From Candidatus Dormiibacterota bacterium (GTDB lineage: Bacteria; Chloroflexota; Dormibacteria; Aeolococcales; Aeolococcaceae), in assembly GCA_036495095.1 (NCBI GenBank), contig DASXNK010000107.1, forward strand, positions 11,042 to 75,041: 64,000 bases of DNA, read 5' to 3'. The notes beneath the pieces were generated by a model, which had not been told where the DNA came from, did not search any database, and saw only the letters and a list, made by a program, of their open reading frames with translations. Position 1 is the stretch's first letter. Each line of letters starts with the position of its first letter. Positions 1,368-39,107 of this stretch are shown in pieces. The position numbers and the translations under genes are program-made.

Positions 1368-1559
1368 GGCCGGAGTGTGCCCGGCCGAGCGTAAGAATGC
1401 AGCAACAGTCGGAGGCGGCTGTTGCGCTGTCACTGTGCTGACGAAATTGTTGGGATTGCTGGAGTTTACCCGGTTTCCGCAGTTCCCTGTCCGCCCCTGT
1501 CGCCGTCTGGGTTCTGCTACGCTCGCCATGGTCGGTCGAGCGGTTGTTGGAGGGGCGTC

Positions 1560-2270: not shown

Positions 2271-3755
2271 CCCGGCGACCTCGGTGGCGAGGCGGAGCAT
2301 GTCCTCCTGGGCGCGCCGGTGGTCGGCGCGCAGCGCGGCGGCGCGGGCGCCGAGGGTGCGCGCCGCCTCGGCGCAGCCGGCCGCCATCCGGGTGACCACC
2401 TCGGGGGCGGCGCCGCCGGGGGCGCTGCGGGTCTGCACGATGGCGCGCGGGTCGAGCACCTCGGTGAGGTCGGCACCGGCGAGCCCCAGGCTGCGTCCGA
2501 TCTGCTCGACCGCGGCGGCGTCGAGCATCTCCCCGGTGATGTCGATGCCGCGCAGCCCCTCGCGTCCCGCCCGGCTCACCGCGCGACCGACCACCAGGTA
2601 GGCGGTGCGGTAGTCGACGCCGCAGCTGAGCATCACGTGCTCGGCGAGGTCGGTGGCCTGGGAGAAGCCCTGGAGCAGCGCCTGCTCCATCCGCTCGGGG
2701 TGCACCCCGAGGGTCGCGACCACCTCGGCCATCAGGCGGACGACGCGGCTCGCCAGCTGCATCGAGCGGGGCACCTCGCCCTGGGCGTAGATGAGGTTGT
2801 CGCTGCGTGCCGAGGGGGTCTTGACCACCGCGAGGTAGCCGCTCAGCCGGCCGATCAGCACCCCCGCGGCGCCGCGCACGATTGCGAGCGCGTAGGGGTT
2901 GCGCTTCTGAGGCATGAGCACGCTCGACCGGGTGTAGGGGCCGGCGAGCTCGACGAAGTCGAACTCCTGGCTGTCCCAGATCTCCAGGTCCTCGGCGAGC
3001 TTGGCGAGGTTGGTGACCAGGCTGGCGGCGGTGGCGAGCAGGTCGACGAGGCCGTCGATCTGCCACATCGCGTCGCGGGTGTGCTCGATGACGCCGTCGA
3101 AGCCGAGCAGCCGGGCGATGTGGTCGCGGTCGCTGACCAGCCGGCTGCCGTTGACGCAGCCGGCGCCGCCCGGGCTCAGGTTGACCCAGTCGAGGCAGGC
3201 GAGGAGGCGGTCGGCGTCGCGCAGCGCCGGGTACGCGAAGGTGAGCAGGTAGTGCCCGAAGGTGGACGGCTGGGCCTGCTGGAGATAGGTCTGGTCGGGC
3301 ATCAGCGTGCCCGCGTGCGCCTCGCTCACCGCGGCGACGCTGGCGGCGAACCCGGCGGCCTCGGCGACCAGGTCGACGATCATCGAGCGCAGCAGCACGC
3401 GCAGCGCCACCCGCGCAGCCTCGCGCCGGGGCCGGCCGGCGTGGAGCCAGCCGGCGTCGTCGCCGATGCGCTCGACGAAGTGGCGCTCACGGCTGTTGTA
3501 GGGGTCGCCGTGGATGGCCGCATAGGGAAAGTCGGCCGCCGCCACCCCGTGGGTCTCGACGAGCAGGGCGAGCAGCCGCCGCGCCACCGGCTCGGGGACG
3601 ATGCCGCGGGCACGCAGGTCGAGGACGTGGGCGATGTCGGCGAGGGTGAGGCCCTCGTGGAGCAGCGGCGCGTCGGCGATCTCGAGGGCGAAGCCGGCCT
3701 CGACCAGCGATGCCGCCGGGGCCTCGTCCGAGGCGCCGTGGCCGCCCCGGCTCAC
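2256..3755 (-). CDS. Fumarate-lyase superfamily enzyme, argininosuccinate-lyase-like
   Basis: Contains the class II fumarase/aspartase signature SSVLMPQKRNP. ~500 aa. GTG start overlaps the upstream gene stop (GTGA). Confidence 0.75.
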   Translation of the reverse strand: MSRGGHGASDEAPAASLVEAGFALEIADAPLLHEGLTLADIAHVLDLRARGIVPEPVARRLLALLVETHGVAAADFPYAAIHGDPYNSRERHFVERIGDDAGWLHAGRPRREAARVALRVLLRSMIVDLVAEAAGFAASVAAVSEAHAGTLMPDQTYLQQAQPSTFGHYLLTFAYPALRDADRLLACLDWVNLSPGGAGCVNGSRLVSDRDHIARLLGFDGVIEHTRDAMWQIDGLVDLLATAASLVTNLAKLAEDLEIWDSQEFDFVELAGPYTRSSVLMPQKRNPYALAIVRGAAGVLIGRLSGYLAVVKTPSARSDNLIYAQGEVPRSMQLASRVVRLMAEVVATLGVHPERMEQALLQGFSQATDLAEHVMLSCGVDYRTAYLVVGRAVSRAGREGLRGIDITGEMLDAAAVEQIGRSLGLAGADLTEVLDPRAIVQTRSAPGGAAPEVVTRMAAGCAEAARTLGARAAALRADHRRAQEDMLRLATEVAGSAPA

Positions 3756-4732
3756 AGCGCGCTCCCCGCGCCGGCGGGGGCGAGCGCCACCGCCGTGCCG
3801 CCGGTGTGCCAGAAGAGCACCGGCCCGCCGGCGCCGGCGGCGAGCAGCCGGGGGAGCACGCCGAGCGCCTTGGCGGTGAAGGCGGGGTCCAGGACCAGCC
3901 CCTCGTGGGCGGCGGCGAGGGAGGCGGCTCTCGCCCCCTCGATCGAGGCCTGCCCGTAGCCGGGCCCGCGGGCGTCGTGGACCTCCACCGCGGCGGCCGG
4001 CGGCGGCGGCACGCCGAGGAGCCGGGCGCCGGTGCCGGCGAGCTCCAGCACCCGCGCCGCGGTCTCCTCCACGGGGCGGCTCACCGCGGCGCCGGCCACC
4101 CGCAGCCGCCGGCCCGCCGCGGTGAGGCCGGCGAGCAGGCCCGCCTGGGTCACCCCCGAGCCGGTGGCCAGCAGCAGCAGCGCCGGCTCCACGCCGGCGG
4201 CGTCGAGCTGGTCGAGCGCCTCGGCCGCGGCGGCGGCGTAGCCGAGGACAGCCACGTCCCGGGCACCCCCCCGGGGGATCGCATAGGGACGGCGGCCGGC
4301 GGCGCGCAGCTCCGCGGCGGCGGCCTCCAGCCCGGCGTCGACGGACTCGCGGCGGGGGTCGCCGGTGAAGCGCACCGTGGCGCCGAAGCCGCGGGCGAGC
4401 ACCAGGTTGGGGTGGGGGATCGCCGGCTCGCCGCCGTACAGCACCAGGGTGCAGCCGAGCCCGGCGACCGCGGCCGCGGCGGCGGCTCCCTGGCACCAGC
4501 TGGAGGCGGGGCCGCCGCCGGTGAGGAGCACGTCGCAGCCGGTGGCGAGGGCATCGCCCACCAGGAACTCGAGCGACCGGGTCTTGTTGCCGGCGAGCGC
4601 GAAGCCGCAGAGGTCGTCGCGCTTGCACCAGAGCGGCGGCGCCCCGAGCACGCGCTCCAGCCGCTCGAGGCGCACCAGCGGGGTGGGGAGCAGCGCCAGG
4701 CGCAGCCGGGCGGCGGCGGTGGTCAGCGCCAC
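3752..4732 (-). CDS. PLP-dependent ACC deaminase / D-cysteine desulfhydrase / cysteate sulfo-lyase (CuyA) family enzyme
   Basis: Motif WCKRDDLCGFALAGNKTRSLEFLV matches the ACC-deaminase family lysine region. ~326 aa. GTG start overlaps the upstream lyase stop. Confidence 0.75.
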   Translation of the reverse strand: MALTTAAARLRLALLPTPLVRLERLERVLGAPPLWCKRDDLCGFALAGNKTRSLEFLVGDALATGCDVLLTGGGPASSWCQGAAAAAAVAGLGCTLVLYGGEPAIPHPNLVLARGFGATVRFTGDPRRESVDAGLEAAAAELRAAGRRPYAIPRGGARDVAVLGYAAAAAEALDQLDAAGVEPALLLLATGSGVTQAGLLAGLTAAGRRLRVAGAAVSRPVEETAARVLELAGTGARLLGVPPPPAAAVEVHDARGPGYGQASIEGARAASLAAAHEGLVLDPAFTAKALGVLPRLLAAGAGGPVLFWHTGGTAVALAPAGAGSAL

Positions 4733-6084
4733 GGGTCGGGCTCGGCGGCGAGGGCGGCGCGTCCCCGCCGCACCGCGGCGTCGACGATGGCCCCGGCGCT
4801 GCCCGCGCCGGCGGCGACCGGCGGGCCGCCACCGGCGTCGCCGAGGTCGACGTGGTCGCGGAGCGCCTCCTCCAGGCTCTCGCCGCGCTCCTGACCGGCC
4901 CGCAGCGCCGCCTGCAGCAGGCTCTGGGCGCGGTGCCTGCCGATCCGGGGGGCGAGCTCGGCGAGCAGCGCCTCGGAGGCCGCGTACCCACCGCCGGCGC
5001 CGAGGTTGGCCAGCATCCGTTCGCCGTCCACCTCCAGGCCGTCGAGCAGCCGCCGGGCCAGCGCCAGGGCGGCGCCGGTGAGCAGGCAGGCCTCGGGGAG
5101 GGCGATCCACTCCGCCTTCCAGGCGCGCCCGTCGCGCTCGTGCTCGCCGACCATTCCCTCGAGCAGGGTCGCCGCCTGCTGGCGAACCAGCCGGGCGAGG
5201 GTGCCGAGATGCTCCGCGGCCTCGGGATTGCGCTTGTGGGGCATGGTGATGCTGCCCACCGCACCCGCCGCGGCGGGCTCCCGCAGCTCGCCGATCTCGG
5301 GGCGCTGGAGCTGGTACACCTCGGTGCCGATCCGCGCCAGGGTGGCGGTGACCATCGCCAGCAGGTGGCCGAACTCGGCGACCCGGTCGCGGGCGGTGAG
5401 CCATGGCACCAGCGGGTCGGCGAGGCCGAGGCGGGCGCAGAAGCGCGCCCGCAGCTCGAGGCCGTTCTCGCCGAAGAAGGCGAGGGTGCCGACGCCGCCG
5501 CCGAGCTGGCCGGCGAGCCAGCGCGGCGCCCCCTCGGTGAGCCGCTCGCGGTGGCGCCGGACCTCGTCGGCCCAGGAGGCGGCCTTGAGGCCGAAGCTGA
5601 TCGGCGACCCCGGCTGGCCGTGGGTGCGGCCCGGCATCAGGGTGTCGCGGTGGCGCTCGGCGAGGTCGAGCAGAAGGCCCTCGACCGCACCCAGGTCCCG
5701 CCACACCACCCGTCCGACCCGGCGCATCGCCAGCGCTGTCCAGGTGTCGGTGAGGTCCTGCACGGTGGCCCCGTAGTAGACGTGCTCCGCCGCCTCGGCG
5801 GGCAGCAGCCGCCGCAGCGCCGCGATCAGCCCGAGGGTGGAGTGCGAGGTGCTCCGGGTGACCTCGGCGGCGAGGTCGAGGTCGACCAGCTCGACCCGGG
5901 CGGCGGCCGCGATCGCCTCCGCCGAGGCGGCGGGGATCAGGCCCAGCTCGGCCTGGGTGGCGGCGAGGGCGGCGAGGATGTCCAGCCACGACTGCAGCCG
6001 CGCCTCCTCGTCGAAGACGGCGCGCATCTCGTCGGTGCCCCACAGGTGGGCGTAGAGACGCGAGTCGCTCAGGCGGGCGCCCAT
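4723..6084 (-). CDS. Fumarate-lyase superfamily enzyme, adenylosuccinate lyase / 3-carboxymuconate cycloisomerase (PurB/PcaB)-like
   Basis: Signature GSITMPHKRNP, 454 aa. ATG start at 6084 overlaps the upstream gene stop. Confidence 0.75.
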   Translation of the reverse strand: MGARLSDSRLYAHLWGTDEMRAVFDEEARLQSWLDILAALAATQAELGLIPAASAEAIAAAARVELVDLDLAAEVTRSTSHSTLGLIAALRRLLPAEAAEHVYYGATVQDLTDTWTALAMRRVGRVVWRDLGAVEGLLLDLAERHRDTLMPGRTHGQPGSPISFGLKAASWADEVRRHRERLTEGAPRWLAGQLGGGVGTLAFFGENGLELRARFCARLGLADPLVPWLTARDRVAEFGHLLAMVTATLARIGTEVYQLQRPEIGELREPAAAGAVGSITMPHKRNPEAAEHLGTLARLVRQQAATLLEGMVGEHERDGRAWKAEWIALPEACLLTGAALALARRLLDGLEVDGERMLANLGAGGGYAASEALLAELAPRIGRHRAQSLLQAALRAGQERGESLEEALRDHVDLGDAGGGPPVAAGAGSAGAIVDAAVRRGRAALAAEPDPWR

Positions 6085-6947
6085 GCCGGCTCCGCGATCC
6101 GTGCGACCTCGCCCAGGCCCTCGCGGACCAGCTCCAGCGACGCTCCCCAGGGCACCGTGACCCGCCCCGGCGTCACCTCCAGGTGCTCCTCGAGCAGGCA
6201 GCACTTGGTCAGCACCGGCGCCGGCGCCGCCATCCGCCGCGGGCAGATGTCGATCCGCTCGGCGTCGGCGCCGTAGAACCAGTGGTGGATCTCGCGGGAG
6301 CGCTCGCAGCCGAGCAGCAGCCAGTCGCGGTGGGGAGGATGCTGATCGAGGTAGGCGACCTCCACGCCCTCGAGCACGATCCCCGAGCCCCGGCAGGGCA
6401 GCAGCCGGTCGCGGCCGTCGCCGCCGTTCGCTCCCAGCTCGCGGAGATCGACGAGGTGGGGCACCAGCTCGATGGGGGGCAGGTCGTCGGCCACGGCCAG
6501 CACCCGGCGGCACTGGTCGAACAGCTTGGGCGGCTCCGGCGGCACCACCTCGACGACGGTGATGCGCAGCGGCCGGGGGTCGAGGATGAAGTTCAGGTGC
6601 TCGTAGCGCCCGTGCACGACCACGCAGCGCACCCCGGGGGCGTGCCGCCCGGCGGCGGCGGCGAGCTGGGTGGGCACCGCGGTGTCGACCTCGGCCAGGT
6701 GGAGCAGCGCGCACTCGTGGGGGAGGGCGAGGATCTCCACCGCGGTGATCGGCGAGAAGAGCGGCTCCTCGGTGGCCCGGTCGACCCGCACCACCGCGGT
6801 CTGCTCGCCGTGGCGGGCGATGATGTAGCGGGTCCGCCGGTAGGAGTCGCGGCCGAGCAGGTGCTGCCGGAGCGACGCCGGGTCGAGGGGGCGGTCGAGC
6901 TCGGCGACGGAGACGTCGCGGTAGCGCCGGGGGACGAGGTTGCTCAT
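6069..6947 (-). CDS. Hypothetical protein, operon-embedded
   Basis: 292-aa ORF overlapped at both ends with flanking operon genes. No recognisable motif apart from a conserved-looking C-terminus (LTKCCLLEEHLEVTPGRVTVPWG). Confidence 0.5.
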   Translation of the reverse strand: MSNLVPRRYRDVSVAELDRPLDPASLRQHLLGRDSYRRTRYIIARHGEQTAVVRVDRATEEPLFSPITAVEILALPHECALLHLAEVDTAVPTQLAAAAGRHAPGVRCVVVHGRYEHLNFILDPRPLRITVVEVVPPEPPKLFDQCRRVLAVADDLPPIELVPHLVDLRELGANGGDGRDRLLPCRGSGIVLEGVEVAYLDQHPPHRDWLLLGCERSREIHHWFYGADAERIDICPRRMAAPAPVLTKCCLLEEHLEVTPGRVTVPWGASLELVREGLGEVARIAEPAWAPA

Positions 6948-7732
6948 GTCCCCGCGGCGGCGGCGACCTCACCCTCGCCGCAGCTCAGCTCGATGGTGTC
7001 GGCGCGCAGCCCCAGCCGCAGCGCCTCGAGGCCGAGCACCTCGGCGGGCACCACGTTGCCGAGGCCGGCGTCGGCGCCGAGCCGGCGGATGAACCACGCC
7101 TGCTGGTCCTTGCGGGGAGCCTCGAAGATCACCCGGTGGCGGGTCGCCCGGAGGAGCGCGTCCACCAGCTCGGCGCGGACCGTGCCGTCCGCCGAGTAGA
7201 GCCCGACGGTGCCGCTCTCGCGGCCCTCGGCGACCACCCAGGTGGCGCCGGCCTCGAGGTCGCCGGCGGCCTCCTCGGCCCAGGCGAAGGCGTGCACCGG
7301 GGCGTCCGGCTGCTTCGCCCCGACCTCGGCGAGCACCGTGAACCGGCGCGCGGCGCGCTCGATGAGGTCCCGCTTGGCGGCGAGCGGCAGCCGGCGGGTG
7401 CCGTTGGAGACCTCGACGCAGGGGAAGCCGGCCTCCTCCGCCCAGTCGAGCAGCCGCTCGGCGGCGCCCTGCACCCAGGCCACCTCGAGCAGGGTGCCGC
7501 CCACGCACGCCTCCACCGCGTGCTCCCGGAGAATGGCCACCCTGTCCGCCACCCGAGGATCGAGGTACGCCGTGCCCCAGCCGAGCTTCCAGACGTCGAC
7601 GTGGCCGGCGCACAGGTCGAGGAGCGCGGACATCTCCGGGAGCGGCATCCCGCGGTCGAGAACGTGGGTGATCCCCGCTCGCCGGGGCTTCGAGCTGCGC
7701 GAGGGGAGCTCGAGGAAATCGGGATGCGGCAT
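6944..7732 (-). CDS. comA: (2R)-phospho-3-sulfolactate synthase (ComA) family protein
   Basis: N-terminal SKPRRAGITHVLDRGMP matches the ComA KPRxxGLTxVxDKG pattern. ~262 aa. ATG start at 7732. Confidence 0.7.
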   Translation of the reverse strand: MPHPDFLELPSRSSKPRRAGITHVLDRGMPLPEMSALLDLCAGHVDVWKLGWGTAYLDPRVADRVAILREHAVEACVGGTLLEVAWVQGAAERLLDWAEEAGFPCVEVSNGTRRLPLAAKRDLIERAARRFTVLAEVGAKQPDAPVHAFAWAEEAAGDLEAGATWVVAEGRESGTVGLYSADGTVRAELVDALLRATRHRVIFEAPRKDQQAWFIRRLGADAGLGNVVPAEVLGLEALRLGLRADTIELSCGEGEVAAAAGT

Positions 7733-7762
7733 TTCTTCGATAGTAGATGCGCATTTCGTCCC

Positions 7763-8740
7763 GTGCAAGTTGGGCCGCCGGTGACCGAGCTCGACGCGGT
7801 GGTGCGGACCGTCCGCGAGGGGCCGGGACTGCGCGCCAAGGCAGCCCTCGCGCTGGTCAGCGACGTGTTCGGGCCCAGCGACTGGACCGGCGGTCCCGGC
7901 GACGACGCCGCCGTCGTCGACGCCGGCGGGGGCCGGGTGGTGGCCGGTGGCGAGGCGCTCTGGCCGCCCTTCGTGGCCGCCGACCCGCGGGGCGCGGGCA
8001 TCGCCGCGGTGGTCGCCAACGTCAACGACGTCTGCGCCATGGGGGCGCGGCCGCTCGCGATCCTCGACACCGTGATCGCCCCCGAGCCGGTGGCGCGCCT
8101 GGCCCTGGAGGGGATGCGCCACGCCGCCGCCCTCTACGGGGTGCCGGTGGTGGGCGGGCACCTGACCATCCGCGATGGTCCGCCGGCGATCTCCGCCTTC
8201 GGGCTCGGCGAGCTGCGCGGCCCGGTGCTCAGCTCCCGCCACGTCGCCCCCGGTCAGGCGCTGCTCCTCGCCTGCTGCCTGGAGGGGACGATGCGCGCCG
8301 ACTTCCCCTACTTCTCCTCCCTGGCGGAGCGGGGCGAGCGCCTCGCCGGGGACGTCCGGCTGCTCCCCGAGCTCGCCGAGGAGGGGATCTGCGTCGCCGC
8401 CCGCGACGTCAGCATGGCCGGGGTGCTGGGCTCGCTGGCGATGCTCCTCGAGCCCACCGCCGCCGGCGCCTGCGTCGACCTCGACGCCCTGCCCCGGCCC
8501 GCCGGGGTGCCGCTGACCAGCTGGGTGATGGCCTTTCCCGCCTACGGCTTCCTGCTCTGCGCCGACCCCGGTGCCGTCGAGGCCTGCCGGGCCCGGTTCG
8601 CCGCCCGCGGCCTCGCCTGCGAGGTGATCGCCACCGTCGACGGCGGCGGCGAGCTGCGGGTGCGTGGGGGAGGGGAGGAGCGGCGGGTGCTCGACCTCCG
8701 CAGCGAGCCGGTCACCGGGCTGCGGCTGAGGGCGGAGTGA
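7763..8740 (+). CDS. AIR synthase-related (PurM/HypE/ThiL superfamily) protein, sll0787-like
   Basis: PurM-like N- and C-domains (AAVVANVNDVCAMGARPLAILDTV ... GGHLTIRDG ... ARDVSMAGVLGSL). Divergent from comA by ~30 bp. GTG start chosen in frame. Confidence 0.65.
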   Translation: MQVGPPVTELDAVVRTVREGPGLRAKAALALVSDVFGPSDWTGGPGDDAAVVDAGGGRVVAGGEALWPPFVAADPRGAGIAAVVANVNDVCAMGARPLAILDTVIAPEPVARLALEGMRHAAALYGVPVVGGHLTIRDGPPAISAFGLGELRGPVLSSRHVAPGQALLLACCLEGTMRADFPYFSSLAERGERLAGDVRLLPELAEEGICVAARDVSMAGVLGSLAMLLEPTAAGACVDLDALPRPAGVPLTSWVMAFPAYGFLLCADPGAVEACRARFAARGLACEVIATVDGGGELRVRGGGEERRVLDLRSEPVTGLRLRAE

Positions 8741-9912
8741 TCCGCATCGGCGCCGGGGAGCGCCGGGCCCGGCTGGCGCGGCGCCACCACCTCGCGCCGG
8801 CCGCCCGCGCGTCCGGCCCGGTCGAGGTGGCCGCCGGCCTCGTCGCCCTCCACGCCACCGACCCGGCCACGGTGTTCCTCGCCGCCGCCGCGCGGATGCG
8901 CCTCCCCGAGACCGCGGCCGTCGAGCGGGCGCTCTACGAGGACCGCGTTCTGGTGCGGATGCTCGGGATGCGCCGGACCATGTTCGTGGTGCCCCGCGAC
9001 CTGGTGGGGGTGGTGCAGGCGTCGAGCACCCGGGCGATCGCGGCCCTGGAGCGGCGCCGGAGCCTGCAGCTGCTGGAGGGGGCGGGGATCGGCGGCGACC
9101 TCGCCGCCTGGCTCGCCGGGGTCGAGGAGGCCACCCTGGCCGCGCTCGCCGCCCGCGGCGAGGCGACCGGGGCGGAGCTGTCCGCGGACGTGCCCGGGCT
9201 GCGCACCCGGGTGCTGCTCTCCGAGGGCAAGCCCTACGAGAGCCTGCAGAACATCACCACCCGGGTGCTGACCCTGCTCGCCGCCGACGGGCGCATCGTC
9301 CGCGGCCGGCCCCGCGGCACCTGGATCTCCAGCCAGTACCGGTGGTCGCCGGTGGAGGCGTGGCTGCCCGGCGGGGTGGCGGAGTGGACCGCCGAGGCGG
9401 CCCGGGCCGAGCTGGTGCGCCGCTGGCTCGCCGCCTACGGCCCCGGCACCGAGGCCGACCTGCGCTGGTGGACGGGATGGACGGCGGCCCAGGTGCGCGC
9501 CGCCCTCGCCAGCTGCGGCGCGGTGGCCGTCGACCTCGACGGCGTCCCCGGCCTGGCGCTCCCCGGCGACCTCGAGCCCGAGCCGGCGGCCGAGCCGTGG
9601 GTGGGGCTGCTCCCCGCCCTCGACCCCACGGTGATGGGCTGGGCCGGGCGCGACTGGTACCTGGGCGAGCACGGCCCGGCCCTCTTCGACCGCTCCGGCA
9701 ACGCCGGTCCCACGGTGTGGTGGGACGGCCGGATCGTCGGGGGCTGGGGTCAGACCCCGGCTGGCGGCGTCGCCGTCGAGCTCCTGGAGGACGTCGGGGC
9801 GGAGCCGGCGGTGGCGGTGGAGGAGGCGGCCGCGACGCTGGGCGGCTGGCTCGGCGGGGTCAGGGTCACCCCCCGCTTCCGGACGCCGCTGGAGCGGCGG
9901 CTCAGCTCCTGA
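8737..9912 (+). CDS. Winged-helix DNA-binding protein of the AlkZ/YcaQ (HTH_42) DNA-glycosylase family
   Basis: ERALYEDRVLVRMLGMRRTMFVV and the overall pattern match the AlkZ-like family. GTG start overlaps the upstream stop (GTGA). Confidence 0.65.
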   Translation: MIRIGAGERRARLARRHHLAPAARASGPVEVAAGLVALHATDPATVFLAAAARMRLPETAAVERALYEDRVLVRMLGMRRTMFVVPRDLVGVVQASSTRAIAALERRRSLQLLEGAGIGGDLAAWLAGVEEATLAALAARGEATGAELSADVPGLRTRVLLSEGKPYESLQNITTRVLTLLAADGRIVRGRPRGTWISSQYRWSPVEAWLPGGVAEWTAEAARAELVRRWLAAYGPGTEADLRWWTGWTAAQVRAALASCGAVAVDLDGVPGLALPGDLEPEPAAEPWVGLLPALDPTVMGWAGRDWYLGEHGPALFDRSGNAGPTVWWDGRIVGGWGQTPAGGVAVELLEDVGAEPAVAVEEAAATLGGWLGGVRVTPRFRTPLERRLSS

Positions 9913-10678
9913 GGGTCGCCTCGACGCCGCGGACGTCCCCGTCCTCGTCGACGAGCACGCCGGGGTCCGCGTAGCCGAGGCGGGCGAGGTCGCCGGCGAG
10001 CGCGCCCGCCTGGGCACCGCCGAGCTCGAGCAGGAGCGCGCCGCCTCGCCGGAGGAAGCGGACGCTGCCGGCGACGACGCGGCGGAGGACCTCGGTGCCG
10101 TCGGGGCCGCCGTCGTAGGCCAGCGCCGACTCGAAGGCGAAGGTGTCGCGCTGCAGCAGCGGCAGCTCCGGGGTGGGCACGTAGGGCACGACCGCCACGA
10201 CGACGTCGACGCGTCCCTCGAGGGTGGGCGGCAGCGGGGCGAAGAGGTCGCCGCGGTATGCCTCGACGCCGTTCGCCGCCGCGCAGGCGACGGCACGCTC
10301 GTCGAGGTCGGAGCCCACCACCCGCGCCCCGGGGTGGCGGGTGGCCAGCACCCGGGCGATCGCCCCCGACCCGGTGCAGAGGTCGATCGCCACGCCGTTC
10401 GCGGGCAGGCGCTCGGCGGCCCGGCACGCGAGCCGCTCGCTCTGCCAGCGGGGGACGTAGACCCCGGGGTCGACGCGGACCCCCACACCGCAGAACACGA
10501 CGCCGCCGGTGATCCAGGCGAGCGGCTCGCCGGTGAGCCGGCGCGCGACCAGCGACTCGAGGAGGCCGGCGTCGCCGGCGGCGCACGCCAGCAGCTCGCC
10601 GGCCTCCTCCGCCGCCGCGATGAAGCCGGCGACCGCCAGCCTGGCGGTGAGCACCTCGAGGTCGTTGGCCATCCGCAC
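9902..10678 (-). CDS. Class I SAM-dependent methyltransferase, HemK/PrmC-like
   Basis: Motif IDLCTGSGAIARVLA (SAM-binding GxGxG) and HemK-like N-terminal region. 258 aa. Confidence 0.7.
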   Translation of the reverse strand: MRMANDLEVLTARLAVAGFIAAAEEAGELLACAAGDAGLLESLVARRLTGEPLAWITGGVVFCGVGVRVDPGVYVPRWQSERLACRAAERLPANGVAIDLCTGSGAIARVLATRHPGARVVGSDLDERAVACAAANGVEAYRGDLFAPLPPTLEGRVDVVVAVVPYVPTPELPLLQRDTFAFESALAYDGGPDGTEVLRRVVAGSVRFLRRGGALLLELGGAQAGALAGDLARLGYADPGVLVDEDGDVRGVEATLRS

Positions 10679-10761
10679 CAGTACACCACGGGCACACCGC
10701 CGTCACCGTCTCGTTACCCGGTGCGGAGTAGTGGCCGCCGTATACTCGGCGCCGGATAGTC

Positions 10762-11439
10762 ATGAACGAGCCACGCCGCGACATCACCAACCCCCTCGCG
10801 CTGGCGGTCCTCGCGCTGCTCTTCGAGCGGCCGATGCACCCCTACGAGATCGCCTCGCTGATGCGCGAGCGCGCCATCCACGAGGCGATCAAGCTCAACT
10901 ACGGCTCGCTGTACACCGTCGTCGACCTGCTCCTCCGCCACGGGCTGATCGAGGCCCAGAGCACCGCTCGCGACGGGCGGCGCCCGGAGCGCACCGTGTA
11001 CCGGCTGACCGACGCCGGCCGTGCCAGGTTCCGGGGCTGGCTGCGGGAGCTGCTCCGCACCCCCGCCAAGGAGTACACCCAGTTCGCCGCCGGGCTCGCC
11101 TTCGCCGCCGCGGTGGGCATCGACGAGCTCGGCTCGCTGCTCGAGGAGCGTGCCGGCCGCATCGAGGCCGAGCTCGCCGAGGCGCGAGGGATCTTTGCGG
11201 ACCTCACCGCGAGGGGCCTGCCCCGGCTCTTCACGCTCGAGGGCGAGCACGCGATGGTGCTCCGCACCGCCGAGCTGGAGTGGGTCCGCGGCGTGATCGC
11301 CGCCATCGCCGGCGGCCGCCTCGCCCTCCCCACCGCGGAGGAGATGGCCGTCCTCCACCAGAACTTCCCCACCGCCGCGCCGATGCCGGCGCAGAGCGAC
11401 GGATCCGCACCTTCACCCCGAGAGGAGACGCCCCTGTGA
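10762..11439 (+). CDS. PadR-family transcriptional regulator
   Basis: N-terminal winged helix LALAVLALLFERPMHPYEIASLM ... GSLYTVVDLLLRHGLIE is typical of PadR. Confidence 0.8.
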   Translation: MNEPRRDITNPLALAVLALLFERPMHPYEIASLMRERAIHEAIKLNYGSLYTVVDLLLRHGLIEAQSTARDGRRPERTVYRLTDAGRARFRGWLRELLRTPAKEYTQFAAGLAFAAAVGIDELGSLLEERAGRIEAELAEARGIFADLTARGLPRLFTLEGEHAMVLRTAELEWVRGVIAAIAGGRLALPTAEEMAVLHQNFPTAAPMPAQSDGSAPSPREETPL

Positions 11440-12383
11440 TCGAGACCAATGGGCTGCGCCGCAGCTTCACGACCCGGCGGGGCGAGGTCGAGGCCGTCGC
11501 CGGCATCGACCTCCGCGTCGACGCCGGCGAGATCGTCGGCTTCCTCGGCCCCAACGGGGCGGGGAAGACCACCACCCTGCGGATGCTGACCACCCTGCTC
11601 GTGCCCAGCGGCGGCGAGGCCACCGTGGCCGGCTGCGACCTGCTCCGCGAGCCCCGTCAGGTGCGCGAGCGGATCGGCTACGTCGCCCAGGGCGGCTCCA
11701 CCGATCCCACCGTCACCGGCCGCCACGAGATGGTGCTCCAGGCCCGCCTCTACGGGATGGACCGCGCCACCGCCGAGGCGCGCGCCGCCGAGGTGCTCGG
11801 CGCCCTCGACCTCACCGCCTGCGCCGACCGCAAGGGCGGCACCTACTCGGGCGGCCAGCGCCGCCGCCTCGACCTCGGGCTGGGCCTGGTCCACAAGCCG
11901 CAGCTGCTCTTCCTCGACGAGCCCACCACCGGGCTCGACCCGCAGAGCCGCGCCCACCTCTGGGACGAGATCCGCGGCCTCCGCGAGCGGGGCACCACGG
12001 TGTTCATCACCACCCACTACCTCGACGAGGCCGACGCCCTCTGCGACCGCCTGGCGATCATCGACCACGGCCGCATCGTCGCCGAGGGCACCGCCGAGGA
12101 GCTGAAGCGGGATGTCGCCGGCGACGTGGTCACCGTGGGCGTCCTCGAGGACGTCGACGCGGCGCTGCGGCTGCTCCAGCACCAGCCCTTCGTGCGCGAG
12201 GCCACCGTCGACGAGGGCACCGTGCGCCTCTACGTGGAGCGCGGCGAGGCCGCCATGCCGCTGATCCTCCGCCTCCTCGACGGCGGCGGGCTGACCCTGC
12301 AGACCATCTCGCTGGCGCGGCCGTCGCTCGACGACGTGTTCCTCCGCCAGACCGGCCGCTCGCTCCGCGACGAGGCCGCATAG
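11436..12383 (+). CDS. ABC transporter ATP-binding protein (DrrA-like)
   Basis: Walker A GPNGAGKTT, signature YSGGQRRRL, Walker B LLFLDEPTTGLD. Start overlaps the PadR stop (GTGA). Confidence 0.85.
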   Translation: MIETNGLRRSFTTRRGEVEAVAGIDLRVDAGEIVGFLGPNGAGKTTTLRMLTTLLVPSGGEATVAGCDLLREPRQVRERIGYVAQGGSTDPTVTGRHEMVLQARLYGMDRATAEARAAEVLGALDLTACADRKGGTYSGGQRRRLDLGLGLVHKPQLLFLDEPTTGLDPQSRAHLWDEIRGLRERGTTVFITTHYLDEADALCDRLAIIDHGRIVAEGTAEELKRDVAGDVVTVGVLEDVDAALRLLQHQPFVREATVDEGTVRLYVERGEAAMPLILRLLDGGGLTLQTISLARPSLDDVFLRQTGRSLRDEAA

Positions 12384-12389
12384 GAGACC

Positions 12390-13154
12390 GTGATGAGAGT
12401 CCTCCGCGACAGCTGGCTGGTCTTCCAGCGGAGCATGGGCCAGACCCTCCGAAACCCGGTGTGGGTCGTGGTCGGGCTCATGCAGCCGATCTACTACCTG
12501 TTCCTCTTCGGCCCGGTGTTGAAGAAGGTCGCCGAGTCGTCGCCCGACTACGGCGGCAACGCCTACGACATCTTCGTCCCCGCGCTGCTCGTGCAGATGG
12601 CGCTCTTCGGCTGCGTCTTCGTCGGCTTCGGCCTCATCGCCGAGCTGCGCTACGGGGTCATCGAGCGGATGCGCGTGACCCCGATGAGCCGGCTGTCGAT
12701 GCTCCTCGGCCGGGCTGGCCGCGACATCGCCGTGCTGCTCTTCCAGTCGGCGCTGCTGGTGGTGATGTCGATCCCCTTCGGCCTGCACATCACCGCGACC
12801 TCGATCGCCATCATCAGCGTCCTCCTGGTGCTCATCGGGCTGGGGATGGCCTGCCTCTCCTACGGCCTCGCGCTCAAGCTGCGCAGCGAGGACGCGATGG
12901 CGCCGCTGCTCAATGCCATCTTCCTGCCGATCATGCTGCTCAGCGGCATGCTGCTTCCTCTGAGCCTGGCTCCCGCCTGGTTGCAGGGGGTGGGCCACGC
13001 CAACCCGTTCTACTACGCGGTCGAGGCGGCCCGGAAGGCGTTCCAGACCCCGGTCGCGGGCGGAACGGTCCTGGGTGGCATCGCGGTCGCCGCCGCTCTC
13101 GCCGCCGTCACCATCACCTGGGCGGCCCGCTCCTTCGGGCGGTCGGTGGCCTAA
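12390..13154 (+). CDS. ABC-2 type transporter permease (DrrB-like)
   Basis: 254-aa polytopic hydrophobic protein immediately downstream of the ATPase. Confidence 0.8.
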   Translation: MMRVLRDSWLVFQRSMGQTLRNPVWVVVGLMQPIYYLFLFGPVLKKVAESSPDYGGNAYDIFVPALLVQMALFGCVFVGFGLIAELRYGVIERMRVTPMSRLSMLLGRAGRDIAVLLFQSALLVVMSIPFGLHITATSIAIISVLLVLIGLGMACLSYGLALKLRSEDAMAPLLNAIFLPIMLLSGMLLPLSLAPAWLQGVGHANPFYYAVEAARKAFQTPVAGGTVLGGIAVAAALAAVTITWAARSFGRSVA

Positions 13155-13648
13155 ACCGGTCCCAGCGCGATCACCATGTCCTGGTGCGGCCTGCCGAGAT
13201 AGTCGGCAGGCCCACCCAGGGCGGTCCAGCCGAGGCGGCGGAAGAAGCGCACGTTGGCCACCTGCACGTGGGCGCGCATCACCCGGCCGCCGCGCTCGCC
13301 GGCGGTGCGCACCGCGTAGCGCACCAGCGGTTCGGCGACGTGGCGGGCCCGGTAGGCGGGCAGCACGCTGAGCCGGTCGCCCACCCAGACGCCCTCGCCG
13401 TCGAGGTCGAACAGCCGCACCGTCCCCGCCACCTCGCCGTCGCAGAAGCCGAGCACGTGGAGGGTCGTCGGGTCGGCGTCGCGGTCGTCGAGGTCGGTGA
13501 TCGCGAAGATCCCCTGCTCGTCGACGAAGACGCGCTCGCGGATGCGCAGGTGCACCTCGAGCTCGCCCGGCGAGGCCACCGGCCGGCAGTGGACGGTGGG
13601 CGGGCTAGTGGAGAGGGCGAAGGGGGATGCGCTCGAGGTCGTCACCAC
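13151..13648 (-). CDS. GNAT family N-acetyltransferase (MSMEG_0567/Sll0786-like)
   Basis: GNAT core RIRERVFVDEQ ... GTVRL. Sits immediately downstream of the radical SAM gene; the annotated start overlaps the rSAM 3' end, so the true start may be internal. Confidence 0.65.
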   Translation of the reverse strand: MVTTSSASPFALSTSPPTVHCRPVASPGELEVHLRIRERVFVDEQGIFAITDLDDRDADPTTLHVLGFCDGEVAGTVRLFDLDGEGVWVGDRLSVLPAYRARHVAEPLVRYAVRTAGERGGRVMRAHVQVANVRFFRRLGWTALGGPADYLGRPHQDMVIALGPV

Positions 13649-14741
13649 CGCTGCTCCGTTCCATGACTCCCATCACCGAGCACGCCTGGCAGCGGGCGCA
13701 GCCGGCGCGCACCGTCCCGGAGCTGATGCCGCGGGCCTGGAGGTGCGGCACCACCCGCCGGTAGATCGCGTCCATCCGCTCCGCCGGCGGCGGCGAGCAC
13801 GCCTCCATCAGGCTGCCCGGCACCGGCCGCAGCGGCACCACGAAGGGATAGACGCCGAGGTCGATGGCGCGCAGGCAGCCCTGCACGGTGACCTCGGGGT
13901 CCTCGCCCATGCCGATGATCACGTAGGTCGAGACCTGGCCGCGGCCGAAGAGCTCGACCGCCCGCTCCCAGGCGGCGAAGTAGCCCTCGATGCCGGTGCG
14001 CGCCTTCGCGGGGGCGATGCGGGCGAGCACCGCGGGGTCGAAGGACTCGACGTGGATGCCGACCGAGTCGACGCCGGCGTCGTGGACCCGGTCGAGCGCC
14101 GCGAGGTCGCCCGGGGGCTCGAACTGCGCCTCGATGGGCAGGCCGCTCGCCTCCTTGATCGCCGCCGCGCAGCGCGCCAGGTAGAGGGCGCCGCGGTCGG
14201 GGCCGTGGGTGCTGCCGGTGGTGAGGGTGACGTCGACCGCGCCGTCGAGGTCGCGCGCGGCCACCGCCACCGCGGCGAGGTGCTCGGGTCGCTTCACCCG
14301 CACCGTGCTCCCCGCCTGCAGGGTCAGCTCGATGCCGCAGAAGTGGCACTGGTCCTCGGTGTCCCAGTACGCGCAGGTCTGGATCACCGTGCTCGCCAGC
14401 GAGTCGAGGTGGAGGAGGGCGATCTTCCAGTAGGGGATGCCGTCGTCGGTGGTGAGGTCGTAGTACCGGGGACGCGCCGGCGCCGCCGCCGAGGCGAGGC
14501 GGACGCCCCCGCGGTAGATGCCCCAGCCCTCGTCCTCGCGTCGCATGGTGTACGGCGACCCGGCGACGTACGCGGCCGTCACCGGGACGGTCACCGGCAC
14601 CCCCTCGACGTGGATCATCCCCGCGTCGGAGGGGCCCGCGCCGCCACGCCGGGCCTCGACCGGCCCCTCCAGCCGCACGCCGCGGCTCTGCAGCTCGGTG
14701 AGCAGCCGTCCCAGGTCGGGCGTCACCGGAACAGTGGCCAT
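13605..14741 (-). CDS. Radical SAM protein (MSMEG_0568-like)
   Basis: Cys cluster CAYWDTEDQCHFC plus a C-terminal CARCQAC motif. ATG at 14741 preceded by a GGAGG-type RBS. ~378 aa. Confidence 0.65.
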   Translation of the reverse strand: MATVPVTPDLGRLLTELQSRGVRLEGPVEARRGGAGPSDAGMIHVEGVPVTVPVTAAYVAGSPYTMRREDEGWGIYRGGVRLASAAAPARPRYYDLTTDDGIPYWKIALLHLDSLASTVIQTCAYWDTEDQCHFCGIELTLQAGSTVRVKRPEHLAAVAVAARDLDGAVDVTLTTGSTHGPDRGALYLARCAAAIKEASGLPIEAQFEPPGDLAALDRVHDAGVDSVGIHVESFDPAVLARIAPAKARTGIEGYFAAWERAVELFGRGQVSTYVIIGMGEDPEVTVQGCLRAIDLGVYPFVVPLRPVPGSLMEACSPPPAERMDAIYRRVVPHLQARGISSGTVRAGCARCQACSVMGVMERSSGGDDLERIPLRPLH

Positions 14742-14857
14742 GCGCGCCTCCTCGCGACCGGACAATTCCACAAACTTTGGAAGACGACCGTTCACCAAAG
14801 GAAAACAGAATCTTGCCCGCGGCTTCGCACCGTGTCAAGGGTGCCAGGGCCCCGGCG

Positions 14858-15481
14858 TCACTCCTGCTCGAGATACCGGCGCAGCTCCTGGGTGGCCTTC
14901 GTCCAGGACTCGGCGTCGGCGAAGGTGCGGGCGTCCTCGACGGTGGTGCCGGGTGCGTGGTCGCCGCTGCCGGGGTCGAGACGCAGCCGCTGGAGGCCGT
15001 ACTCGGGGCGCCCGGTGGCCGGGTCCGGGTCGATGTACAGGTGGAGGGCCTCGCCGCTGCGGACGTGCATCTCCAGGCGGCGGTGGCCGGTGCGCTCGGG
15101 GCGGCCGCTCTCGTGCAGGACCACCCAGGCACCGCCCCGGTCGCGCGCCTCGGAGATCAGCCGCAGCGCACGCAGCCGTTCCAGCGCACCCAGGATCTCC
15201 CGGTGCCGGATGCCGAAGGCGGCGCCGGCGATCAGCCCCAGGTCGAGCTCCTCGGCGGCCATCCCGGTGCGCGCCAGGAGGCCGTCGAGGGTCTCCGGCG
15301 CCCGGGGGAAGGCGGCGGCCAGCTCCTCCACCGCGGTGTGCGCGCGGAGCTCGTCGGCGAACGCGCGGACCAGCAGCCCGGCGCGCTCGTAGAGGTCCGG
15401 ACGGACCATCACGACGGGGTAGAGGCGGGCCTCGTCCTCCCGCCACCGCCGCACCAGGGCGGCGATCTCCTGTTCATTCAT
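14858..15481 (-). CDS. Hypothetical protein (possible Nit1C-cluster accessory protein)
   Basis: 207-aa ORF with high GC3 and no recognisable motif. Lies upstream of the rSAM/GNAT pair. Confidence 0.45.
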   Translation of the reverse strand: MNEQEIAALVRRWREDEARLYPVVMVRPDLYERAGLLVRAFADELRAHTAVEELAAAFPRAPETLDGLLARTGMAAEELDLGLIAGAAFGIRHREILGALERLRALRLISEARDRGGAWVVLHESGRPERTGHRRLEMHVRSGEALHLYIDPDPATGRPEYGLQRLRLDPGSGDHAPGTTVEDARTFADAESWTKATQELRRYLEQE

Positions 15482-15587
15482 CCGAGTACCCGGCGTGTAC
15501 TATGTTCAACGCCTTGTCCTCTATCATGCACACGACCGGAAGGGGGGCGCCGAGCGCGCCGGGTCCCATCCGTGGCCCAGGCCCAGC

Positions 15588-16541
15588 ATGAGGCACACGG
15601 TCGTGCTGGCGCTGGGCGGCAACGCCCTCACCCCTCCGGACCAGTCAGGGGCCTGGGAGCAGCAGCGCGCCAACGCCGTGCCCCTCGCCCGCGCCGCCGC
15701 CGCCCTTCTCCACGCCGGCTGGCGGGTGGCGATCAGCCACGGCAACGGCCCCCAGGTCGGCGCTCTCGCGCTGCAGCAGGAGGCGGGCGCCTCCGGCGTC
15801 GCCGCCCAGCCGCTCCACGCGGTGGGGGCGATGACCCAGGGCCAGATCGGCAGCCTGCTGGCGATGGCGCTCGCAGAGGTCTGCGACGGCGGCGTCTCGG
15901 TGGTCTCCGTGGTCACCCACATGGTGGTGGCCGAGCCGGCGCCGGGCGCGGTGCCGACCAAGCCGATCGGCCCCTTCTACCCGCGGGAGCGGGCGCTGGA
16001 GCTGGCCGCGGAGCGGGGCTGGGCGGTGGTCGACGACGCCGGCCGGGGCTGGCGGCGGGTGGTCGACTCCCCCGAGCCGCTGGAGATCGTCGAGGCGCGG
16101 GCGGTCCGCGACCTCGTCGATGGCGGCCACCTGGTGATCGCGTGCGGCGGCGGCGGCATCCCGGTGACCCGCCGCGACGGCCGCCTCGACGGGGTCGAGG
16201 CGGTGATCGACAAGGACCTCGCCGCCTGGCGGCTGGCGGTGGAGCTGGGGGCGGGCGTGCTCGCGCTGGTCACCGGGGTGGACTGCGTCAGCCTCGACCA
16301 CGGCACCCCTCGCGAGCGGGCGATCACCGAGATGTCCCTGGCCGAGTCGGAGGCACTCGACAGCGCCGGGCACTTCCCCCCGGGGAGCATGGGTCCCAAG
16401 GTGGCCGCCGCCCGCCGCTTCGTCCGCGACGGCGGCGAGCTCGCGGTGATCACCTCGGCGGAGCACGTGCTCGAGGCGGTCGAGGGACGGCACGGCACCC
16501 GCATCGTCGCCGGCACGGGCACCGTGAGGGCGTCGGCTTGA
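15588..16541 (+). CDS. arcC: Carbamate kinase
   Basis: ALGGNAL, ISHGNGPQVG, KPIGPFY, ACGGGGIPV, EAVIDKDLA and GSMGPKV motifs all match the carbamate kinase family. Confidence 0.8.
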   Translation: MRHTVVLALGGNALTPPDQSGAWEQQRANAVPLARAAAALLHAGWRVAISHGNGPQVGALALQQEAGASGVAAQPLHAVGAMTQGQIGSLLAMALAEVCDGGVSVVSVVTHMVVAEPAPGAVPTKPIGPFYPRERALELAAERGWAVVDDAGRGWRRVVDSPEPLEIVEARAVRDLVDGGHLVIACGGGGIPVTRRDGRLDGVEAVIDKDLAAWRLAVELGAGVLALVTGVDCVSLDHGTPRERAITEMSLAESEALDSAGHFPPGSMGPKVAAARRFVRDGGELAVITSAEHVLEAVEGRHGTRIVAGTGTVRASA

Positions 16542-17734
16542 GCTCCGCGCCGGTGGCGCTGCTCACCTACTCGACCAAGCCGCGGGGCGGGGTGGTGCAC
16601 ACCGTCGAGCTCGCCGAGGCGCTCCACGACGCCGGCCGCCCGGTGCACATCGTCACCCTGGGCGACCCCGACCAGGGCTTCTACCGCCCGGTGCGGGCGC
16701 CCCACACCATCCTCCCCGCGCCCGCGTCCGCCGCCACCCTCGAGGAGCGGGTGACCGCGGCCGTCGACGCCCTGGCGGAGGGCCTGGCCCCGCTGGCGGG
16801 ACGCTTCCGGATCCTTCACGCGCAGGACTGCATCGCCGCCCGGGCGGCGGCGCGGGTGCGCGACCAGGGGGCTCGAGCGCTGGTGGTGCGCACCGTCCAC
16901 CACGTCGACGACTTCACCACCCCCGCGCTGATCGACTGCCAGCGGCGGGCCATCCTCGAGCCCGATCACGTGCTGGTGGTCAGCGAGCAGTGGCGCCGGC
17001 TGCTCGGCGAGGACCCCGGGGTCGAGGCGGAGGTGGTCCCCAACGGGGTCGACGCCGAGCGCTTCTCCGGCCCGGGCGCCGTGGACCCGGCGGAGTTGCG
17101 CGCCCGGGTGGGGGCCGAGGGCCGCTTCCTCTTCCTCACGGTCGGGGGGATCGAGCCGCGCAAGGGCAGCGCCGAGCTGCTCGAGGCGATGGCGGCGCTG
17201 TGCGGCGAGGCGGGGCCATCGCCGGTGCTGGCGGTGCTCGGCGGCCACTCGTTCCAGGACCACTCCGCCTACCGCGAGGCGGCGCTGGCGCGGGCCACCG
17301 ACCGGGGCCTCCGGCTGGGGACCGACGTGGTCGTGCTCGGCACCGTGCCCGACGCCGAGCTGGTGGCGTGGTATCGGGCCGCCGACGCGTTCGTGCTGCC
17401 CTCGACCCGGGAGGGGTGGGGGCTGGCGGTGCTCGAGGCGCTGGCCGCGGAGCGGCCGGTGGTGGCCAGCGACATCGAGGTGTTCCGCAGCTATCTGACC
17501 GACGGCGAGACCGCCCTGCTCGCGCCCGCCGGCGACGCCGGGGCGATCGCCGCGGCGATGCGGCGGCTGGTCGCCGACCGCGGGCTGCGCGAGCGCCTCG
17601 CCGGCGCCGGGCCCGCGGTGGCGGCGCGCTACAGCTGGGCGGCGAGCGCTCGTCGGCACGGCGAGATCTATGACCGCCTGGCGCCGGTGGCGCCCCCCGC
17701 CCGCTGGGCGGGACGCTTGGCCGCGCGCCGGTAG
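16538..17734 (+). CDS. GT4 family glycosyltransferase (possible MSMEG_0565-like)
   Basis: C-terminal GT-B motif VLPSTREGWGLAVLEALAAERPVVASD. TTG/GTG start overlaps the arcC stop. Confidence 0.75.
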   Translation: MSSAPVALLTYSTKPRGGVVHTVELAEALHDAGRPVHIVTLGDPDQGFYRPVRAPHTILPAPASAATLEERVTAAVDALAEGLAPLAGRFRILHAQDCIAARAAARVRDQGARALVVRTVHHVDDFTTPALIDCQRRAILEPDHVLVVSEQWRRLLGEDPGVEAEVVPNGVDAERFSGPGAVDPAELRARVGAEGRFLFLTVGGIEPRKGSAELLEAMAALCGEAGPSPVLAVLGGHSFQDHSAYREAALARATDRGLRLGTDVVVLGTVPDAELVAWYRAADAFVLPSTREGWGLAVLEALAAERPVVASDIEVFRSYLTDGETALLAPAGDAGAIAAAMRRLVADRGLRERLAGAGPAVAARYSWAASARRHGEIYDRLAPVAPPARWAGRLAARR

Positions 17735-18163: not shown

Positions 18164-18238
18164 GCTATCAGGCATCGTGATGACGAACACTACCATGACT
18201 CCTGACACAATGCGAGCACTTCGAGGAGATCGAGGCAT

Positions 18239-39106: not shown

Positions 39107-39107
39107 G

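Follow-up and report, generated by a model that had tools for sequence, protein, structure and literature searches.

A probably housekeeping-type AlkZ-like DNA glycosylase and a DrrAB-like exporter with a PadR-family regulator as probable cargo of a conserved xcb/Nit1C-like supercluster in Candidatus Dormiibacterota

Does a DNA glycosylase of the AlkZ/YcaQ superfamily, encoded beside a PadR-family regulator and a DrrAB-like exporter, protect a bacterium against a genotoxin made by the enzymes encoded around it? This question is raised by a group of five genes from a soil bacterium of Candidatus Dormiibacterota (GenBank assembly GCA_036495095.1, contig DASXNK010000107.1). We analysed a stretch of 64,000 nucleotides of this contig (positions 11,042 to 75,041, forward strand), called the window here, in which the five genes occupy positions 8737-13154. 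An initial annotation, made from the sequence alone, had taken the glycosylase as a self-resistance marker and the neighbouring enzymes as possible producers of a genotoxic compound. Nothing that we found points to a DNA-damaging toxin, and the genotoxin inference is not supported. We favour, with a rough probability of 0.6, a composite explanation in which the genes are lineage-specific cargo in a variable slot of a conserved supercluster, the pump probably serves this cluster, and a housekeeping-type glycosylase of the AZL2 clade is probably co-expressed with it.

As the window has a G+C content of about 74%, genes were called via the GC content of third codon positions (GC3) and then compared with Pfam and NCBIfam. 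The calls agree exactly with the five genes listed before, and the family assignments (AlkZ/YcaQ superfamily, methyltransferase, PadR and DrrAB-like ABC-2 exporter) are borne out by both databases. The glycosylase gene (8737-9912, plus strand, 391 amino acids, Pfam: PF06224) starts with a GTG codon that lies on the TGA stop codon of an AIR-synthase-like (AIRS-like) gene (7781-8740, plus strand), so that the GTGA overlap reported earlier is present at 8737-8740. It overlaps by 11 nucleotides with a convergent gene for a class I SAM-dependent methyltransferase related to PrmC/HemK (9902-10678, minus strand, 258 amino acids, Pfam: Methyltransf_25/MTS). A divergent intergenic region, the presumed promoter/operator (10679-10761), is followed on the plus strand by the genes for the PadR-family regulator (10762-11439, 225 amino acids, Pfam: PF03551, E 6.9e-15), a DrrA-subfamily ABC ATPase (11436-12383, 315 amino acids) and a DrrB-like ABC-2 type permease (12390-13154, 254 amino acids, Pfam: PF01061, E 1.5e-29). 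The padR stop codon overlaps the ATPase start codon in a second GTGA (11436-11439), the ATPase and permease genes are 6 nucleotides apart, and the permease gene overlaps by 4 nucleotides with a convergent GNAT gene that begins at 13151. GC3 is 0.95-0.98 and even over the cargo and its flanks, so there is no compositional sign of recent transfer into the cargo.

The glycosylase matches the DNA glycosylase AlkZ-like family PF06224 with an E-value of 1.5e-65. It scores 222.5 bits, where the cut-off is 25.9, and the match spans positions 2-329 of the 329-position profile. The exact protein is found at NCBI as HEY2704287.1, from a Candidatus Dormibacteraeota metagenome-assembled genome. Conservation of the N-terminus in orthologues with unrelated gene neighbourhoods supports the start at 8737. 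Bradley et al. (mBio 2022, PMC9040887) distinguish three clades of such proteins in Streptomyces. YQL proteins carry the motif Q-Phi-D. AZL proteins carry (Q/H)-Phi-Q, are enriched in biosynthetic clusters and are variable in sequence, with about 40% similarity. AZL2 proteins carry H-Phi-(S/T)-(D/E), are closer to AlkZ than to YcaQ, are mostly encoded in single copy and were in no case found closer than 20 kb to a biosynthetic cluster; the AZL2 protein of S. caeruleatus excises 7-methylguanine (7mG). A comparison of QxQ with QxD had been suggested to tell AlkZ from YcaQ, and our protein has neither. Residues 38-43 of the translation read LHATDP, with H39-A40-T41-D42 as the putative catalytic motif, which agrees with the AZL2 consensus. 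A threonine stands at the position of AlkZ Q39, where the AZL motif has its glutamine, and the Q-Phi-D motif of YQL is absent. Among 40 homologues H39 and T41 do not vary at all and D42 hardly does, with alignments showing LH[AGS]TDP.

Structural comparison points in the same direction. A single-sequence phmmer search against the PDB gave no match even at E 10, so a profile of 12 sequences was needed to reach AlkZ (PDB: 5UUJ), which was then the sole match with E 1.5e-10. The profile alignment places H39-A-T41-D42 on Q37-A-Q39-V of AlkZ; it is weak at the N-terminus and in register. Comparisons with E. coli YcaQ by BLASTP and hhalign were both non-significant and gave no usable alignment, and because they failed, the register of the motif rests on the weak N-terminal alignment to AlkZ together with the published consensus. 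An AlphaFold2 model of the glycosylase has a predicted local distance difference test (pLDDT) value of 76 and a predicted template modelling (TM) score of 0.79, with low confidence for residues 320-391. Searched with Foldseek, this predicted model has AlkZ 5UUJ as its top match (E 1.1e-13, TM 0.71/0.74), followed by AlkX/YcaQ 9zd6 (TM 0.62-0.67) and the Lhr C-terminal domain. The prediction thus agrees with an AlkZ-type fold, which has tandem winged helices and a C-terminal domain. AlkZ ranks over YcaQ in the profile search as well as in Foldseek. By sequence and predicted fold, we assign the glycosylase to the AZL2 clade and neither to the cluster-associated AZL nor to the YcaQ type. With E. 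coli YcaQ and A. baumannii AlkX, both YQL proteins, it shares the superfamily, at the TM scores given for 9zd6, and a housekeeping-like distribution, while it lacks Q-Phi-D and any detectable similarity to E. coli YcaQ. By analogy with the S. caeruleatus protein, a glycosylase activity on N7-alkylguanine or interstrand crosslinks is predicted.

If the gene were a resistance determinant of its cluster, it should be found with that cluster. A homologue search returned 7995 proteins at E <= 1e-10, and the 120 homologues listed have full-length identities of 65-91%. In a scan with one genome per GTDB species we found at least 584 relatives, from which 80 orthologues were retrieved. These are 54-79% identical and come from Actinomycetota, Chloroflexota and Dormibacterota. 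The 80 loci, with 10 kb of flanking sequence where available, were searched with all window proteins from 1-24 kb. Only one, from a Candidatus Dormiibacterota metagenome-assembled genome (MAG; L009), has the gene order of the window, and the other 79 sampled genomes lack the neighbour genes. At the other loci the context of the glycosylase gene is constant within a lineage and different between lineages, and where it could be identified it is a housekeeping one, such as gap-pgk-tpi or recO/uppS. In Pseudonocardiaceae gap-pgk-tpi comes right after the AZL2 orthologue and is read in the same direction (approximately positions 10001-15500 of L016, L022, L023, L028, L030, L040, L043, L047, L066, L069 and L080), which gives this DNA glycosylase gene a strikingly core-metabolic neighbourhood. 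The gene of L082, a metagenome relative with 72% identity, has an ABC-F ATPase, recO and uppS beside it. The initial annotation had itself named a grouping with housekeeping glycosylases, at a conserved position in relatives without the neighbouring enzymes, as evidence against its proposal; this is essentially what we observe, with 55-74% identical orthologues at lineage-conserved positions and with AZL2 in the place of YcaQ. A neighbour-joining tree of 85 orthologues is star-like at depth, so vertical inheritance and horizontal transfer of the glycosylase are not separable.

The genes around the cargo were said to be biosynthetic and possibly the source of a toxin, with the left neighbour described as PurM-like. 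AIR-synthase-like it is, with the Pfam domains AIRS and AIRS_C. It is not PurM, and it belongs rather to the sll0787 family of the Nit1C/MSMEG_0567 type, whose model TIGR04049 matches best (267.3 against a cut-off of 321.3), ahead of methanogenesis marker 2 with 165. We also considered ThiL and rejected it, as the thiL models score no more than 41-50 bits, whereas the sll0787 family scores 267. Divergent from this gene, one minus-strand operon (2256-7732) contains five xcb-type genes in the order ComA/XcbB, XcbA, XcbD, XcbE-like and XcbC-like. XcbA (341, cut-off 150) and XcbD (626, cut-off 600) score above their NCBIfam cut-offs, whereas ComA/XcbB (236, cut-off 280), XcbE-like (283, cut-off 450) and XcbC-like (439, cut-off 575) stay below when compared with the bacterial xcbABCDE set. 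The xcbA-E pathway leads from phosphoenolpyruvate to coenzyme M, with intermediates including sulfoacrylate and sulfoethanethioaldehyde (PMC9457059).

On the right side of the cargo follow, on the minus strand, an MSMEG_0567/Sll0786-type GNAT gene (13151-13579, TIGR04045 99.3 against a cut-off of 68.45), an MSMEG_0568-family radical SAM enzyme (13605-14726, TIGR04043 396.4 against 303.7) and a conserved gene of 207 amino acids with strong coding signal and no family match (14858-15481), which is 29-47% identical in most of the related loci. They are followed on the plus strand by a carbamate kinase (15588-16541, NF009007 268.2 against 266) and an MSMEG_0565-family GT4 glycosyltransferase (16538-17734, TIGR04047 378.9 against 259.85). 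The GNAT, radical SAM, GT4 and carbamate kinase proteins thus all pass their NCBIfam cut-offs. The set resembles Nit1C, the 'nitrogen starvation' cluster (Podar et al. 2005) with the canonical order radical SAM, GNAT, AIR synthase, and its counterparts MSMEG_0565-0572 and sll0783-0787. It differs from Nit1C in that there is no nitrilase and no Hp1/Hp2, and in that the AIRS-like gene is on the strand opposite to the GNAT and radical SAM genes. A nitrile hydratase beta subunit is encoded at 32-697, a few kb from these nitrilase-less genes and beside an AllG-like gene; related loci have nitrile hydratase alpha and beta subunits with an accessory protein (L081, 315-1950) or likewise a nitrile hydratase (L165).

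To see how far this arrangement extends, 80 metagenome loci were retrieved with the AIRS-like protein and scored with the window proteins. Their common architecture is OsmC on the plus strand, XcbC-E-D-A-ComA on the minus strand, AIRS on the plus strand, GNAT, radical SAM and the conserved gene without family match on the minus strand, and carbamate kinase and GT4 on the plus strand. ComA adjoins AIRS in 41 of 55 informative loci. In the window this supercluster, including OsmC, covers 770-7732, 7781-8740 and 13151-17734. It is present in dozens of metagenome loci and in MAGs of both Actinomycetes and Dormibacterota, among them L090, L105, L130, L143, L146, L148, L150, L159, L161 and L165. The xcb and Nit1C systems are fused here into one conserved supercluster, a fusion not described in the literature that we searched: within the searchable literature, no paper linking phosphosulfolactate synthase with Nit1C/sll0787 genes was found. 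With their coenzyme-M-type xcb operon and Nit1C-like genes, the flanks resemble cofactor and nitrogen metabolism and not the biosynthesis of an alkylator. No polyketide synthase, non-ribosomal peptide synthetase or other alkylator-type biosynthesis was found across the window, and no enzymes typical of aziridine, epoxide, cyclopropane or anthracycline alkylators were found among its proteins. One could imagine that coenzyme M serves epoxide or alkene metabolism as a source of N7-hydroxyalkylguanine; the window has no epoxyalkane:CoM transferase and no alkene monooxygenase, and the idea stays speculation.

The cargo occupies the convergent junction of the AIRS-like and GNAT genes. Its description as a block inserted between enzyme genes is confirmed by relatives in which GNAT directly follows the AIRS-like gene. 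For 56 metagenome loci there is enough sequence to the right of AIRS to count what this slot contains. GNAT follows directly, within 400 bp, in 27 of them; PadR-ABC is at the junction in three and the glycosylase in one, which is the same contig as L084. Put together, one of 80 AZL2 loci carries the cluster and one of 56 cluster loci carries AZL2, so the two are not co-inherited as a resistance gene and its cluster should be.

These counts bear directly on the possibility that the cassette is for self-protection, that is, that the supercluster makes or passes on a DNA-reactive electrophile, which PadR senses, DrrAB exports and whose N7-guanine adducts the co-translated AZL2 protein removes. 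A genotoxic product should have its resistance travel with the cluster, and a glycosylase in one of 56 loci speaks against this, as do the loci with nothing at all between AIRS and GNAT. Moreover, the protein is a member of the conserved AZL2 clade and not of the variable cluster-associated AZL clade, no typical alkylator enzyme accompanies it, and the PadR-ABC cassette is also found off-cluster. There are nevertheless points in favour. Across relatives with 76-91% identity the glycosylase gene stays coupled to a cluster gene through GTGA, the exporter adjoins the glycosylase as in known resistance islands, and other lineages have independently recruited transporter-regulator pairs to the slot. 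Furthermore, the xcb intermediates sulfoacrylate and sulfoethanethioaldehyde are electrophiles, and the radical SAM, GNAT and AIRS proteins may catalyse undescribed reactions. Weighing both sides, we consider self-protection unlikely. Four points argue against the glycosylase as a marker of self-resistance: its clade, its strong conservation across phyla, the fact that almost no other cluster locus has it, and neighbouring enzymes without alkylator-type chemistry.

The contents of the slot can be arranged in a series. A MAG of Actinomycetes (L090/L091), with an AIRS-like protein 66% identical to that of the window, has GNAT directly after AIRS. In L088/L089 (AIRS 77% identical) PadR-ABC-ABC2 lies between the two. 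L009, with a glycosylase 79% identical to that of the window, has AIRS-AZL2-PadR-ABC-ABC2 followed by a 900-amino-acid LuxR/LAL-type regulator (L009 13624-16326) before GNAT. In the window and in L081, L084 and L085, with glycosylases at least 90% identical, the order is AIRS-AZL2-MTase-PadR-ABC-ABC2, then GNAT, where MTase is the methyltransferase. No significant remnants of the glycosylase or the methyltransferase were found in the spacer between AIRS and padR of L088, which makes stepwise gain the simplest reading. A stepwise acquisition in this order is consistent with the data; gain followed by loss is the alternative.

Other lineages fill the same junction differently. L163 (6120-8261) and L171 (1186-3421) have the gene of an MFS transporter and, divergent from it, that of a LysR regulator, and L170 (8872-10956) has a longer MFS-containing protein; some lineages have OsmC there, and about half of the loci have nothing. 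That two different regulator-transporter pairs occur at one position suggests that a transporter of its own is useful to the cluster. The same contents could also be seen as a neutral juxtaposition, in which the junction tolerates insertions since no operon is interrupted, and the cargo genes are unrelated passengers without a functional tie. Such a heterogeneous collection (nothing, OsmC, MFS with LysR, LuxR/LAL, PadR-ABC and others) would be expected of passengers, even close relatives differ in whether they have the methyltransferase, and PadR-ABC has a conserved upstream region of its own and occurs elsewhere in L050. Against this, at least two independent arrivals of regulator-transporter pairs at one slot do not look random, and the conserved 4-bp overlap joins the glycosylase to the transcription and translation unit of AIRS. 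This overlap is kept in L081, L084, L009 and the P0005 contig; every glycosylase-bearing relative with a readable upstream gene has it, one with 76% identity included. We regard a purely neutral juxtaposition as quite unlikely.

An exporter beside AZL2 also occurs elsewhere. In a second clade, of the Solirubrobacteraceae type, the genes directly downstream of AZL2 encode, in the same orientation, an ABC ATPase and an ABC-2 permease (L031 at 7218-10080, L054 and L078), and in L062 and L065 one gene lies between AZL2 and the ABC-2 exporter. This recurrence may be a repair-plus-efflux pairing or chance. One could extend it to a general defence against xenobiotic genotoxins, with AZL2 and the ABC-2 exporter combining repair and efflux against environmental alkylators and the position in the cluster being incidental. 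A general protection against environmental genotoxins has indeed been proposed in the literature for YQL and AZL2 proteins, and the second clade is unrelated to ours. We give the pairing little weight, because it is known from two independent lineages only and these genomes abound in DrrA-like ABC pumps. L088 has the exporter without the glycosylase, L050 keeps AZL2 and exporter 5 kb apart with unrelated genes between them, and most AZL2 loci have no exporter nearby. For these reasons a general defence system appears extremely improbable as the explanation of this locus.

The PadR-DrrAB cassette appears to be a unit of its own. Its ATPase scores 347.6 with TIGR01188 (drrA), above the cut-off of 312.45, and carries the ABC transporter domain (Pfam: PF00005) together with the DrrA C-terminal domain DrrA1-3_C (Pfam: PF13732, E 1.3e-11). 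The permease scores 98.5 with TIGR01247 (drrB), below the cut-off of 223.05, and is therefore DrrB-like in a broad sense only. The order PadR-ABC-ABC2 is common to L009, L081, L084 and L088. A similar cassette is found outside the cluster in another Dormibacterota MAG (L050), beside an ammonium transporter, where the ATPase is 71%, the permease 55% and PadR 40% identical. An alignment of five orthologous regions, L088 included, shows conserved blocks in the ~80 bp upstream of padR, one of them with a palindromic GTATAC within a -10-like TATACT. As this region is kept with or without glycosylase and methyltransferase, the cassette probably has its own control region. No sigma-70 promoter match and no inverted-repeat operator was found at 10679-10761, and a search for terminator consensus sites was negative as well; the role of the region as promoter and operator is presumed from its conservation. 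Compared with DrrAB exporters under a PadR repressor, following the logic of LmrR/LmrCD, the cassette shares an ATPase above the drrA threshold, the DrrA C-terminal domain, an ABC-2 permease and a regulator gene overlapping the pump operon. It differs in its permease below the drrB threshold, in the lack of a detected operator and in its location in a cluster resembling primary metabolism and not in an antibiotic cluster. Of its reading as an export and resistance cassette, regulated transport is plausible, all the more as LysR with MFS is found at the same junction, while resistance to a genotoxin is not upheld.

The methyltransferase is the most restricted part of the cargo. It is found in L081, L084 and L085 and missing from L009 and L088, so only the closest relatives of the window have it, and no methyltransferase linked to AZL2 was found elsewhere among the 80 glycosylase loci. 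It scores 167.7 with TIGR03704 (cut-off 248.8) and 137.8 with TIGR03534 (cut-off 199.1), and the position of the PrmC/HemK motif NPPY reads VVPY. Judged from score and motif it is a relative of the PrmC/HemK-type N5-glutamine methyltransferases and is not classed as one of them.

On the substrates, regulation and co-expression of the cargo we infer the following scheme. Three units would share the slot in this Candidatus Dormibacteraeota lineage. PadR would keep an autonomous padR-drrA-drrB operon repressed by way of the conserved upstream region, and upon ligand binding the ATPase-permease pair would export a small molecule, probably a product, an intermediate or a substrate analogue of the cluster. 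The AZL2 glycosylase, translationally coupled to the AIRS-like gene and so probably expressed with the cluster, would cut the N-glycosidic bond of N7-alkylguanine-type lesions by means of H39, T41 and D42, and the resulting abasic site would be passed on to base excision repair. It would act as a general, housekeeping-like repair enzyme and not as an antidote reserved for a genotoxin of its neighbours. The PrmC-related methyltransferase of the closest relatives would be the third unit.

Several points weigh against this explanation. The persistence of the AIRS/glycosylase overlap among relatives whose glycosylases are 76-91% identical suggests selection for co-expression and not a neutral accident. 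AZL2 directly before an ABC-2 exporter recurs in the second clade, and a glycosylase beside such an exporter is reminiscent of genuine resistance islands such as the hed cluster, where the glycosylase likewise lies beside a DrrA/ABC-2 exporter. A reactive product of the supercluster may exist. What has been generalised about AZL2 derives from Streptomyces only. Moreover, that a housekeeping gene was relocated is a presumption, made with one HTH_42 gene found in the window. Taken to its end, this line of thought would make the locus the first case of an AZL2 protein recruited into a metabolic cluster, with the hybrid supercluster making a DNA-alkylating or electrophilic metabolite that is countered by a co-translated glycosylase and a PadR-controlled pump, a proposal that we find very doubtful.

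With known self-resistance glycosylases of the AZL clade, namely AlkZ (azinomycin B), HedH4 and TxnU/LldU, our protein shares the superfamily and the predicted fold (PDB: 5UUJ). It differs from them in its motif, which is not (Q/H)-Phi-Q, in its strong sequence conservation (54-91% across phyla), in neighbours without alkylator biosynthesis and in a gene that is not co-inherited with the cluster. With the AZL2 clade it shares a full-length PF06224 domain, an AlkZ-like predicted fold, H-Phi-(S/T)-(D/E), conserved orthologues and many housekeeping contexts. The difference is that AZL2 was described only in Streptomyces and 'always outside clusters' (PMC9040887), whereas here it occurs in Dormibacterota, within a metabolic cluster and coupled to a cluster gene. 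This cluster does not belong to a recognised type of secondary-metabolite cluster. The cargo thus consists of known kinds of genes in an unusual position.

Some further genes of the window were noted. Besides the gene at 14858-15481, two more with strong coding signal have no Pfam or NCBIfam match (17744-18190 and 20544-21170). The window and L084 share a CrtI/CrtO-like FAD oxidoreductase gene (18239-19852) that the 91% identical L081 lacks, a recent difference in gene content in the right half of the cluster region. Two tandem RND/MMPL-type transporter genes of the AcrB family (35918-42739) encode 1062 and 1053 amino acids, and a small unannotated open reading frame lies between them (39108-39581). 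Unrelated to the cargo block are a gene for a stand-alone LigD primase-polymerase domain (46754-47791) and one for a 1067-amino-acid protein with adenylate-cyclase, AAA_16/STAND and TPR domains (57122-60325).

For resistance-guided genome mining our results advise caution: a match to the AlkZ/YcaQ domain beside an exporter is not in itself a sign of a genotoxin cluster. Clade (AZL, AZL2 or YQL, as told by the catalytic motif) and co-inheritance matter too, and both argue against self-resistance here. The AZL2 clade is extended from Streptomyces to Dormibacterota, Chloroflexota and many Actinomycetota. More noteworthy than the cassette are the hybrid xcb/Nit1C-like supercluster and its cargo slot, which, by repeatedly capturing regulator-transporter pairs, offers a handle on what Nit1C-type enzymes make or process.

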